Shown: piece after piece, positions 62,335 through 63,740 of the stretch
How positions within the stretch are numbered: the stretch's first letter is position 1
How the letters are laid out: each line of letters begins with the position of its first letter
Sequence record: PQ511148.1
From: Escherichia phage NHEP10
DNA: 64,000 nt
Strand: one strand, 5' to 3'
Notes under the pieces: model-generated
The model's database searches: none
What the model was told of the DNA's origin: nothing
The model's input: the letters and a program-made list of their open reading frames with translations, nothing else
Translations under genes and position numbers: made by a program

Positions 62335-62574
62335 TTATTTGAATTTCTTAGCGATGTTGATATAACGTAGAGCTTCGGCATCAATACTTCCAAGGACACT
62401 ATGAAGGAATGCGTCGGCATAGTATTCTAGTTGAACAGGTTCTTTAATCGCTTTAGCCGCTTTAGTTTCAAACAGGCCCATAAGGGCCTTTTTAAGAATT
62501 TGTTCGTTGCTGTTAATTTTAATAGTCAAAATCTCTTCATTAAGTTGGTGGTTAAAAGTTTTTCTAGAAATCAT
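62335..62574 (-). CDS. hypothetical protein
   Basis: 79-aa ORF; start overlaps stop of upstream Cys-rich ORF (ATGA). Confidence 0.4.
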   Translation of the reverse strand: MISRKTFNHQLNEEILTIKINSNEQILKKALMGLFETKAAKAIKEPVQLEYYADAFLHSVLGSIDAEALRYINIAKKFK

Positions 62575-63740
62575 TCTGGGTACCTCAAAGCGTCGTCAGA
62601 GTTAGTTATATCAATAATAGATATAGAATTTTCTGATAACCCATTTTTAGATAACTGACGTTTATAATATCTTTCACAATATGTACACGTCGTCCCACAG
62701 ATTTCATTAGCACAATCGAAATCTGGATGTCTGAACCACCTTTTTTCTAAAAAGCCGTCTAACAAAGAGGTTTCAATATTTACCGTATGTGAAAACTCGG
62801 TCTCATTTTCAAGAGTGAAAATGGTCTCTAAAGGCTTCCACAATTCCAACAAATTACCTTCAAACTTTTCAGAAGCGTATGCTTCAAGAACTTTCAAAAT
62901 GTAGTCGGTGCTACCTGTACGTCCTGAAACTTTGAATTGAGTGATACCAATATCATTATAAAGTTTCAAATCTTGTGGACGAACAAAACGAGTTCTCAAC
63001 CAGTTAAATGGGTCTGTATCACGAGCTTTAATACAGTGCTGCATAGGATATCCATTTAATGATTTGGCATCATCTACTGTAACATCGGTGCTATGGAAAA
63101 TATAGCAAGAGTCACGATAGCTACAATGTGTTGTATACCCTTTACCAGCATTAGAACAGAACTCATTTACAAGAACTTCAAATATTATATTGTTCTTATT
63201 GCAAAACTCTGCTGCACGCTTCAGGAAAGAAACTGAACGGTTCTTATGAATTCCACAGCAGACCTTTTTGATATTATACTGGTCATGCAAGTATTTGATT
63301 TGAGTTACAGCATCGACATGTAGAATTGTTGAAACTTCAATCTCAATGTCTTTATTGACTTCACGAACAATTTCCATAACAACAGGGTTAGCGATAGTAA
63401 TACGCCATACGCCTATTGACCAAAGATACTGAACATAATCCTGAATAGCTTTCTTCTTCCACTCAACTAGTTCTCTTTTTGAACCGGGATTTATCGTGTT
63501 GAGTGTATAGTTAAAGCAAATACCTAATTCGTTACAACGTTTAACGTAATCTTCTAACATCTTTTTGTCAACGTCAGGAAGCCTAAAATCAGGTCTGGCT
63601 GCTACAAAAGCCATTTCTCTTGTAGAGCCATATACTTCGTTTATCAAGCTATTAGGATAGGTTTTATTGAGCTCTACGATTTTATCAAGAAGAGCTAAAT
63701 CAAAATTCGTTCCGATTTTAAAAGTATTCATTTTTTGCAT
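62571..63740 (-). CDS. cysteine-rich putative Fe-S enzyme (tentatively peptidase U32-family-like)
   Basis: 389 aa; 13 Cys including C-terminal cluster C343-x4-C348-x3-C352-x2-C355 (CANEICGTTCTYC, i.e. a CX3CXYC unit) and central FCSNAGKGYTTHCS; collinear resemblance by eye to U32 hydroxylases is unverified. Confidence 0.5.
   Translation of the reverse strand: MQKMNTFKIGTNFDLALLDKIVELNKTYPNSLINEVYGSTREMAFVAARPDFRLPDVDKKMLEDYVKRCNELGICFNYTLNTINPGSKRELVEWKKKAIQDYVQYLWSIGVWRITIANPVVMEIVREVNKDIEIEVSTILHVDAVTQIKYLHDQYNIKKVCCGIHKNRSVSFLKRAAEFCNKNNIIFEVLVNEFCSNAGKGYTTHCSYRDSCYIFHSTDVTVDDAKSLNGYPMQHCIKARDTDPFNWLRTRFVRPQDLKLYNDIGITQFKVSGRTGSTDYILKVLEAYASEKFEGNLLELWKPLETIFTLENETEFSHTVNIETSLLDGFLEKRWFRHPDFDCANEICGTTCTYCERYYKRQLSKNGLSENSISIIDITNSDDALRYPE

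Follow-up and report, generated by a model that had tools for sequence, protein, structure and literature searches.

A U32-family protein of RB69-type phages as a candidate prephenate-dependent, oxygen-independent pyrimidine hydroxylase for phage DNA

The 64,000 nucleotides of Escherichia phage NHEP10 analysed here (sequence record PQ511148.1; hereafter the window) derive from an RB69-type Mosigvirus, with DNA 97-98% identical to that of RB69. On the minus strand, at positions 62571..63740, an open reading frame (ORF) with an ATG start encodes a U32-family, putative iron-sulphur (Fe-S) protein of 389 amino acids, the ortholog of RB69 gp50 (ORF050c). We consider it probable that gp50 is a prephenate-dependent, O2-independent C5-hydroxylase acting on pyrimidines for phage DNA, and as such the counterpart of the product of the nearby gene 48, an O2-dependent enzyme. 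Neither the gene nor its U32 label is new, the label for RB69 ORF050c dating from 2006 (PMC1524935), and the placement of the gene in a cluster for 5-hydroxycytosine (5hoC) was published in 2026. The functional proposal, the recurrent coupling of U32 with prephenate-supply genes (chorismate mutase, DAHP synthase), and the many glycosylation operons of uncultivated phages in which a U32 gene stands as the only candidate hydroxylase gene are, by contrast, apparently new to the literature searched, which did not include He et al. 2026 and Mahler et al. 2025.

Membership of the U32 family, which the initial annotation had offered as a weak assignment made by eye, is now supported by several profile and structural comparisons. 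The protein matches the Pfam family Peptidase_U32 (PF01136; 42.4 bits; gathering cutoff: 22.4; e-value: 6.4e-11) over residues 97-289, corresponding to profile positions 2-192 of 233, and is assigned to PHROG 5757. A profile-profile alignment (hhalign) of the phage clade with RlhA, TrhP and UbiU gave a probability of 95.9% (e-value: 6e-9), while an AlphaFold2 model built from 23 homologues (pLDDT: 89.7; pTM: 0.89) adopts the U32 TIM-barrel-like fold, as in PDB entry 5d88. The relationship is visible to profile methods only: amino acid identity to the four E. coli U32 paralogues is 17-22%, pairwise BLAST against RlhA and UbiU gave no significant alignment, and a search of PDB chains by sequence returned no significant match. 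None of the named NCBIfam subfamilies (UbiU, UbiV, RlhA, TrhP) was passed, the sole match, to UbiU, scoring 19.3 bits (cutoff: 440). When 1.84 billion cluster representatives were searched with a profile of the phage clade, 454 were reached at an e-value of 1e-30 or below and just 1,673 at 1e-3 or below. The phage proteins, of about 360 amino acids, constitute a distinct U32 subfamily. Most database records label these proteins as collagenase-like proteases, after the historical name of the family, and annotations such as 'peptidase' and 'putative protease' follow the same usage. That label is inherited, however, and RlhA, TrhP and UbiU/V have been implicated in hydroxylation rather than proteolysis (PMC10990095, PMC6599085). 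With conserved residues that are metal ligands and a genomic context of nucleotide metabolism, a proteolytic function for gp50 is hardly credible.

The cysteine-rich character noted in the initial annotation for the 389-amino acid ORF was likewise confirmed. Thirteen cysteines are present (residues 69, 75, 161, 162, 180, 195, 206, 212, 236, 343, 348, 352 and 355), which at 3.3% of residues, compared with a window median of 1.3%, places the protein second among the 46 ORFs of at least 150 amino acids. The previously noted segment EVLVNEFCSNAGKGYTTHCS is found and falls within the U32 Fe-S/catalytic motif, and the CX4CX3CX2C arrangement at residues 343-355 reads CANEICGTTCTYC. In RlhA (E161/C169/C176) and TrhP (E162/C170/C177), a glutamate and two cysteines of the U32 motif are essential for the formation of 5-hydroxycytidine (ho5C) and 5-hydroxyuridine (ho5U), respectively (PMC6599085), while in UbiU a 4Fe-4S cluster is held by four cysteines and the C176A variant is inactive (PMC10990095). 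In the hhalign alignment, from which the residues were mapped, E188, C206 and C212 of the phage protein correspond to E161, C169 and C176 of RlhA (SCYIFH versus QCYISH), and C236 corresponds to the fourth canonical cysteine. Three of the four canonical 4Fe-4S cysteine positions (C206, C212 and C236) are thus occupied, with Pro232 at the third. A candidate substitute ligand for the missing third cysteine is C195, which lies within a clade-specific β-hairpin insertion (model strands 196-199 and 202-205). An earlier MAFFT alignment that included the four E. coli paralogues, and which paired C195 with C169 and Gly201 with C176 and suggested that the second cysteine was absent, was superseded by the hhalign result.

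Conservation was assessed over 115 full-length homologues sharing 23-49% amino acid identity. C195, C206, C236, K270 and R274 are invariant (115/115), E188 is retained in 90 of these distant homologues, and position 212 (window 63105-63107) is occupied by cysteine in 72 and histidine in 42, a split that could correspond to two subgroups differing in function or cluster type. The C-terminal cysteines C343, C348, C352 and C355 are retained in 108-110 of the 115, while C161 and C180 are not conserved. As the cysteines are conserved across homologues of down to 23% identity, their presence is not attributable to chance. Two putative four-ligand metal sites can consequently be delineated from sequence: the U32 catalytic/metal motif at residues 188-236 (63033..63179, minus strand; E188, C195, C206, C212, C236), based on alignment, conservation and model, and the C-terminal CX4CX3CX2C at residues 343-355 (62676..62714, minus strand), a probable second metal site, either Fe-S or Zn, based on motif and conservation and located outside the region alignable to canonical U32 proteins. 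The CX3CXYC unit that had been pointed out within the latter is present at residues 348-355, but a radical-SAM reading of it was rejected, given its location in the C-terminal tail rather than the N-terminus and the lack of any Radical_SAM profile match at an e-value of 10 or below.

RB69 DNA bears mono- and poly-arabinosylated 5hoC, not arabinosyl-hydroxymethylcytosine, with cytosine as the only base replaced (Lee et al., NAR 2026, PMC13326640). The responsible gp45-55 cluster comprises a kinase, glycosyltransferases and a route from ribulose-5-phosphate to UDP-arabinofuranose, the three enzymes of which have been reconstituted for phage HY126 (PMC13326640). The thymidylate synthase (TS) homologue gp48 produces 5-hydroxy-dCMP by means of a loosely bound flavin, with oxygen derived from 18O2 (PMC13326640), and the O2 origin was confirmed in vitro by He et al. 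2026, as cited in the same paper. Hydroxylation is assigned to gp48 alone in the published pathway, which includes no gp50 experiment, and gp50 appears solely as a table entry, with a match to 5d88 and a prediction as 'sugar or heterocycle reductase'; nowhere does the paper use the words prephenate, chorismate, peptidase or hydroxylase (PMC13326640). The window shares the gene order of the RB69 cluster, with the U32 gene inside it and in the same orientation as the genes for the hydroxylase, the kinase, glycosyltransferases and sugar activation. The gp48 ortholog (61577..62293, minus strand; Pfam Thymidylat_synt: 56.9 bits), sharing 99.6% amino acid identity with RB69 ORF048c, had initially been taken for gene 42 dCMP hydroxymethylase; this identification does not stand, as RB69 gp48 is an O2/flavin-dependent 5-hydroxy-dCMP synthase (PMC13326640).

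The genomic surroundings of U32 genes were compared in 15 T-even-type loci and 32 distant viral loci from IMG/VR, together with five long metagenomic contigs, by counting genes within 10 kb of U32 with local phmmer, jackhmmer and Pfam searches; a word-indexed search, from which the five contigs were taken, had revealed a large metagenomic clade at 47-58% amino acid identity. The cluster neighbourhood is retained in all 15 T-even-type loci. The U32 protein is furthermore the best conserved of the cluster proteins, with a median amino acid identity of 84.7% between the window protein and those of the 14 other T-even loci, followed by gp48 (80.2%) and the other five cluster proteins (60-72%).

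The link to prephenate was first based on the presence of a DAHP synthase elsewhere in the same genome. This gene (1812..2804, minus strand) codes for a class I-α enzyme of the AroF/G/H type, the entry enzyme of the route from shikimate to prephenate (Pfam DAHP_synth_1: 252 bits), and its identity is substantiated by NCBIfam TIGR00034 (aroFGH; 428.7 bits; cutoff: 173.2). As this equivalog cutoff is passed, a KDO8P synthase acting on arabinose-5-phosphate, also considered for this DAHP_synth_1 protein, was ruled out. DAHP synthase genes occur in 212 phage records compared with 221 for U32, with nearly identical genus spectra. In T-even phages other than Mosigvirus, an AroQ chorismate mutase gene (Pfam CM_2: 44.6 bits; cutoff: 27) is located directly downstream of, and is translationally coupled to, the U32 gene. 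This arrangement is seen in 54 phage records, from phages of Klebsiella, Serratia, Yersinia, Enterobacter, Proteus, Erwinia, Edwardsiella, Providencia, Pectobacterium and Shewanella. The U32 and chorismate mutase genes have stayed adjacent, with a 4 nt overlap, even in Shewanella phage Thanatos-1, whose cluster is rearranged. With chorismate mutase coupled to U32, and with DAHP synthases, chorismate mutases or fusions of the two adjoining U32 in unrelated uncultivated phages, the prephenate idea is strongly reinforced by gene neighbourhood.

The distant loci lie on phage-like contigs, some of 190-466 kb, encoding DNA polymerase III alpha, SSB and similar proteins. A DAHP synthase, a chorismate mutase or a fusion of the two adjoins U32 in 12 of the 32. 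DAHP synthase adjoins U32 in six of them, five times fused to chorismate mutase (four Pfam-confirmed), and in none of the 15 T-even-type loci, where it is encoded elsewhere in the genome; a standalone chorismate mutase immediately follows U32 in 13 of the 15 T-even-type and six of the 32 distant loci. One additional Logan locus harbors a class I-β DAHP synthase directly after U32. The four fusions (L042:8399-9430, L045:7290-8354, L047:8323-9384 and L056:11082-12200) consist of an N-terminal DAHP synthase and a C-terminal AroQ chorismate mutase, both exceeding their Pfam cutoffs, an order that is the reverse of that in the Bacillus-type bifunctional enzyme, in which the synthase is C-terminal (NCBIfam NF009239).

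Glycosylation genes accompany U32 in both groups. A glycosyltransferase of the gp46:47 type is found near U32 in 15/15 T-even-type and 23/32 distant loci, 13 of the latter being directly significant against the RB69-type protein, an arabinose-5-phosphate kinase/UDP-sugar pyrophosphorylase in 15/15 and 15/32, and an arabinose-5-phosphate isomerase in 11/15 and 9/32, respectively, while KdsC-like HAD phosphatases complete the set in the distant loci. The orders observed on one strand include glycosyltransferase, isomerase, kinase/nucleotidyltransferase, in some cases DAHP synthase-chorismate mutase, phosphatase and U32; glycosyltransferase followed by an overlapping U32; and U32, chorismate mutase, glycosyltransferase and kinase/nucleotidyltransferase. 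A gp48-type TS homologue is, in contrast, present in all 15 T-even-type loci and in none of the 32 distant ones, one of which contains a canonical ThyA. These operons need a base hydroxyl as acceptor and contain no other candidate enzyme, and we therefore propose that U32, as the only candidate hydroxylase encoded in them, would supply it.

The same comparison bears on the possibility that gp50 assists gp48 as an accessory redox partner, for instance by reducing or protecting its flavin through Fe-S electron transfer. In 15/15 T-even-type loci the two genes lie side by side in the same orientation, the flavin of gp48 is loosely bound (PMC13326640) and gp50 contains two putative Fe-S sites, all of which would fit such a role. 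However, U32 genes of the distant phages lack a nearby gp48-type gene, and gp48 functions without gp50 in E. coli (PMC13326640), in phage JS98 and in Acinetobacter phages. As this role would also leave the linkage with chorismate mutase and DAHP synthase unexplained, we regard it as quite unlikely.

Some distant loci combine U32 with TAGT and UDP-galactopyranose mutase (GLF) genes in place of the arabinose genes (for example L011:13073-14179, L034:19176-19748 and L039:15169-16281). Galactofuranosylated 5hoC has reportedly been found in Rhizobium phage RL38J1, and by analogy the GLF/TAGT companions suggest that other sugars may be attached to the same base. Since U32 is found with these genes too, it tracks the base-proximal step rather than arabinose. 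This is of consequence for a placement of gp50 on the sugar branch, as a reductase, epimerase or other enzyme shaping the pentose or its nucleotide carrier. Such a role would agree with the published 'sugar or heterocycle reductase' prediction (PMC13326640), with the label 'UDP-arabinose biosynthesis' in phage ChristianSchoenbein, and with the position of gp50 amid sugar-pathway genes, including its co-occurrence with arabinose-5-phosphate isomerase, kinase/pyrophosphorylase and HAD phosphatase in many loci. Three enzymes nevertheless already cover the conversion of ribulose-5-phosphate to UDP-arabinofuranose in HY126 (PMC13326640), and JS98 and the Acinetobacter phages possess the sugar pathway without U32. 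Conversely, U32 occurs in loci without arabinose genes, whether with TAGT and GLF or with a dCMP deaminase only, and the linkage with chorismate mutase and DAHP synthase is not accounted for. We know of no U32 protein that acts on sugars, and a sugar-branch function is considered improbable.

A dCMP deaminase is the sole gene associated with U32 in some distant loci. It is encoded directly upstream of U32 in three (L007:9447-10004, L009:7504-7929 and L058:9522-10001; overlapping in L007 and L058), which are megaphage-like contigs, one of 466 kb, with no glycosyltransferase nearby. In these loci a uracil nucleotide may be the substrate, or a different modification may be made. That gp50, at least in the distant phages, acts on another pyrimidine or position, for example in the conversion of dUMP to 5-hydroxy-dUMP, or catalyzes another prephenate-dependent reaction, is indeed suggested by these deaminases, as well as by dCTP-deaminase/dUTPase genes near U32 in other loci. 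In RB69, however, cytosine alone is replaced (PMC13326640), and the co-occurring glycosyltransferase is of the gp46:47 type, assigned to 5hoC. This alternative, a variant of the cytosine hydroxylase proposal rather than a contradiction of it, is rated as unlikely.

The characterised pyrimidine-hydroxylating U32 proteins all act on RNA (PMC6599085), and the catalytic triad is common to gp50, RlhA and TrhP, such that gp50 could be envisaged to hydroxylate tRNA (ho5U34) of host or phage, or 23S rRNA (ho5C2501), during infection. In the 47 viral and five metagenomic loci, however, U32 lies in operons for DNA precursors and DNA glycosylation and is never accompanied by tRNA or RNA-modification genes. 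The C-terminal domains of TrhP and RlhA are furthermore missing from the phage protein, which matches neither model in NCBIfam, and the host already encodes both enzymes, making an RNA target very unlikely. Among the targets suggested in the initial annotation, this context favours a nucleotide or DNA base, with cytosine C5 predicted to be converted to 5hoC, over tRNA and rRNA. The sugar-branch, RNA, gp48-helper, other-pyrimidine and protease alternatives each explain less of the evidence than hydroxylation of a DNA pyrimidine.

The chemistry, substrate, use of prephenate and anaerobic role that we infer for gp50 can be assembled as follows. The phage U32 enzyme would hydroxylate C5 of cytosine to give 5-hydroxy-(deoxy)cytosine, with prephenate as the oxygen donor, after which the neighbouring glycosyltransferases would arabinosylate the 5-hydroxyl in phage DNA. 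Prephenate is the oxygen donor for UbiU/V, a role that has been suggested for it in all U32 proteins, and it is needed by both RlhA and TrhP, which form 5-hydroxycytidine and 5-hydroxyuridine, respectively (PMC10990095). The most likely substrate is dCMP or another deoxycytidine nucleotide, with cytosine already in DNA as the alternative; a mononucleotide is favoured because nucleotide kinase, deaminase and dUTPase-like genes are adjacent. The phage DAHP synthase, together with the U32-coupled chorismate mutase in other genera, would raise the supply of prephenate, while Mosigviruses and Klebsiella phage Marfa, which lack a chorismate mutase, would rely on the mutase domains of host PheA and TyrA. 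In RB69-type phages, U32 would thus provide an oxygen-independent route alongside the adjacent flavin/O2-dependent gp48. The broader notion of a self-contained viral module, in which U32 and prephenate-supply genes jointly generate 5-hydroxypyrimidine deoxynucleotides for glycosylated DNA, as the sole hydroxylase system of many uncultivated phages, jumbo phages among them, and as the anaerobic complement of an aerobic route in T-even phages of enterobacteria, is one for which we see the arguments as evenly balanced.

The distribution of the two enzymes is consistent with such a division of labour. The TS-type hydroxylase is found in 373 phage records, including 57 from Acinetobacter and 20 from Rhizobium phages, while the 221 U32 records stem from phages of Enterobacterales and Shewanella only, no other genus exceeding three records. 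Phages of strict aerobes carry the TS-type enzyme only, and those with U32 all infect facultative anaerobes. The cluster of Acinetobacter phage DLP3, for example, is without U32 (PMC13326640).

Several observations weigh against the hydroxylase proposal. The E. coli Dhakavirus JS98 possesses the whole cluster, yet contains neither U32 nor chorismate mutase. As JS98 and DLP3 lack U32, and the 373 TS-type records exceed the 221 of U32, the latter is an accessory wherever an O2-dependent enzyme exists and not a core component. In aerobic E. coli, gp48 and a dNMP kinase are enough for 5-hydroxydeoxycytidine (5hodC) formation (PMC13326640), and gp50 is therefore not required in air. The genome of the window's phage lacks a chorismate mutase, the corresponding slot being filled by gp49, which is not a chorismate mutase, and Marfa has neither of the two in the slot downstream of U32. 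JS98 and Marfa show that phages of facultative anaerobes can do without U32 or chorismate mutase. At the presumed active site, the third canonical Fe-S cysteine is replaced by Pro232, and C195 is a putative substitute for it. A TS-type hydroxylase may also be encoded in the distant phages beyond the 10 kb covered by the scan. Direct in vitro hydroxylase activity has been shown for no U32 protein (PMC10990095), and the literature covered contains no biochemical or genetic test of gp50. The full-text search of that literature likewise retrieved nothing linking a U32 gene with chorismate mutase or DAHP synthase, and the Thanatos, Durham collection, BASEL and Thomas 2018 papers are silent on gene 50, chorismate mutase and DAHP synthase.

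With regard to the U32 gene itself, the second in-frame ATG (Met4, at 63731; product of 386 amino acids) is the likelier start, since the sole Shine-Dalgarno-like GAG abuts the first ATG, yet lies 9 nt before the second. Several public annotations begin at Met4. A σ70-like site (TTTAAA, 16 nt, TATAAT; 10/12 matches) is located about 47 nt upstream of the ORF (63787-63814, minus strand); in a promoter scan of the region, σ70-like sites were no commoner than in shuffled sequence. The stop codon of the U32 gene overlaps the ATG of the 79-codon gp49 ORF (62335..62574, minus strand) in an ATGA, so that the two are translationally coupled. The translated gp49 product contains no cysteines and has no Pfam or NCBIfam match; a low-confidence single-sequence model comprises three helices (residues 4-42, 47-61 and 66-77). 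The possibility that gp49 is a diverged chorismate mutase was ruled out by BLAST, by hhalign against the phage chorismate mutase profile (probability: 0.2%) and by the lack of a match to a hidden Markov model of 18 chorismate mutase sequences. Homologues of gp49 were also identified by phmmer in the chorismate mutase-bearing phages L019, L024, L027 and L032, and gp49 is therefore a small additional gene that does not take the place of chorismate mutase.

The remaining cluster genes of the window are likewise encoded on the minus strand. The gp46:47 ortholog (60678..61577), the predicted first arabinosyltransferase acting on 5hoC in DNA (PMC13326640, Table 1), is one intact ORF of 299 codons, while in the RB69 reference it is divided between ORF046c and ORF047c; the intact ORF fits the published claim that a sequencing error underlies the split. 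The gp45 ortholog (60129..60677) is a P-loop thymidylate-kinase-like kinase, with weak P-loop Pfam matches and a structural assignment in Table 1 of PMC13326640. Upstream of U32, the 3′ part of the gp51 ortholog (63788..64000), encoding a HAD phosphatase of the UDP-arabinose pathway (PMC13326640), is collinear with RB69 27708-28094, and the gene extends past the window end. At the other end of the window, the DAHP synthase gene ends at the start of an ORF (1231-1812, minus strand) which by translation encodes a T4-type dCMP deaminase (Cd) with seven cysteines. The arrangement suggests that a shikimate-pathway gene (1812-2804) is probably co-translated with a pyrimidine-nucleotide gene (1231-1812). 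This deaminase, the most cysteine-rich product of the window, had been considered as a redox partner and was discarded on the basis of its translation. Mobile elements break up the operon next to U32 in two other loci: Erwinia phage Virsaitis27 carries an annotated Seg-like homing endonuclease gene just upstream (L002:8352-8990), and in L041 a 420-amino acid ORF in the same position (8695-9957) resembles TnpB/IS605 by eye.

Should the proposal hold, it would account for full DNA hypermodification by RB69 and other gut phages in the absence of oxygen, given that the sole described hydroxylase needs O2. A virus would for the first time be seen to draw on prephenate as an organic oxygen donor, U32 enzymes would gain a third substrate class with their first member acting on DNA precursors, and the DAHP synthase and chorismate mutase of T-even-like phages would serve the supply of an oxygen donor, not of amino acids. 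The phage protein would furthermore provide a compact, single-polypeptide and highly expressed viral model for U32 chemistry, which is still unproven in vitro. The 454 clusters (50% identity) in the clade point to uncultivated phages which probably contain glycosylated 5-hydroxypyrimidine DNA, a large reservoir of relevance to restriction, CRISPR evasion, sequencing and phage therapy.

Among known systems, the closest in genetic terms is the RB69 gp45-55/HY126 Afh cluster, which is the same cluster as that in the window and in which this ORF is gp50. The sole solved U32 structure, Mk0906 of Methanopyrus kandleri (PDB 5d88), shares 14% amino acid identity with the phage protein and represents a minimal U32 domain of 247 amino acids of unknown function, whereas the phage protein has about 100 additional C-terminal residues with the four-cysteine site. 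RlhA (YdcP), the E. coli 23S rRNA 5-hydroxycytidine-2501 synthase, belongs to the same Pfam family, has its glutamate and two cysteines aligned with those of the phage protein and shares the same expected outcome, a hydroxyl at cytosine C5; its link to prephenate is genetic, while that of the phage protein is by gene neighbourhood. The two nonetheless share only about 20% amino acid identity, and the phage protein is shorter (389 versus 653 amino acids), without the C-terminal domains of RlhA. Unlike RlhA, it has the third canonical cysteine replaced, an inserted hairpin with C195 and a C-terminal CX4CX3CX2C of its own, and its context is that of DNA precursors rather than rRNA. O2-independent and O2-dependent routes are paired in TrhP/TrhO and UbiUV/UbiIHF, with some genomes encoding both and others one (PMC6599085), and the proposed pairing of U32 with gp48 would mirror those of TrhP and TrhO in tRNA ho5U34 formation and of UbiU-UbiV and UbiI/H/F in ubiquinone synthesis. 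The O2-dependent partner in the phages is, however, a flavoenzyme of the thymidylate synthase fold, not a rhodanese or classical flavin monooxygenase as in the host pairs, and, unlike the TrhP and UbiUV systems, the phage system is viral and is equipped with prephenate-supply genes of its own.

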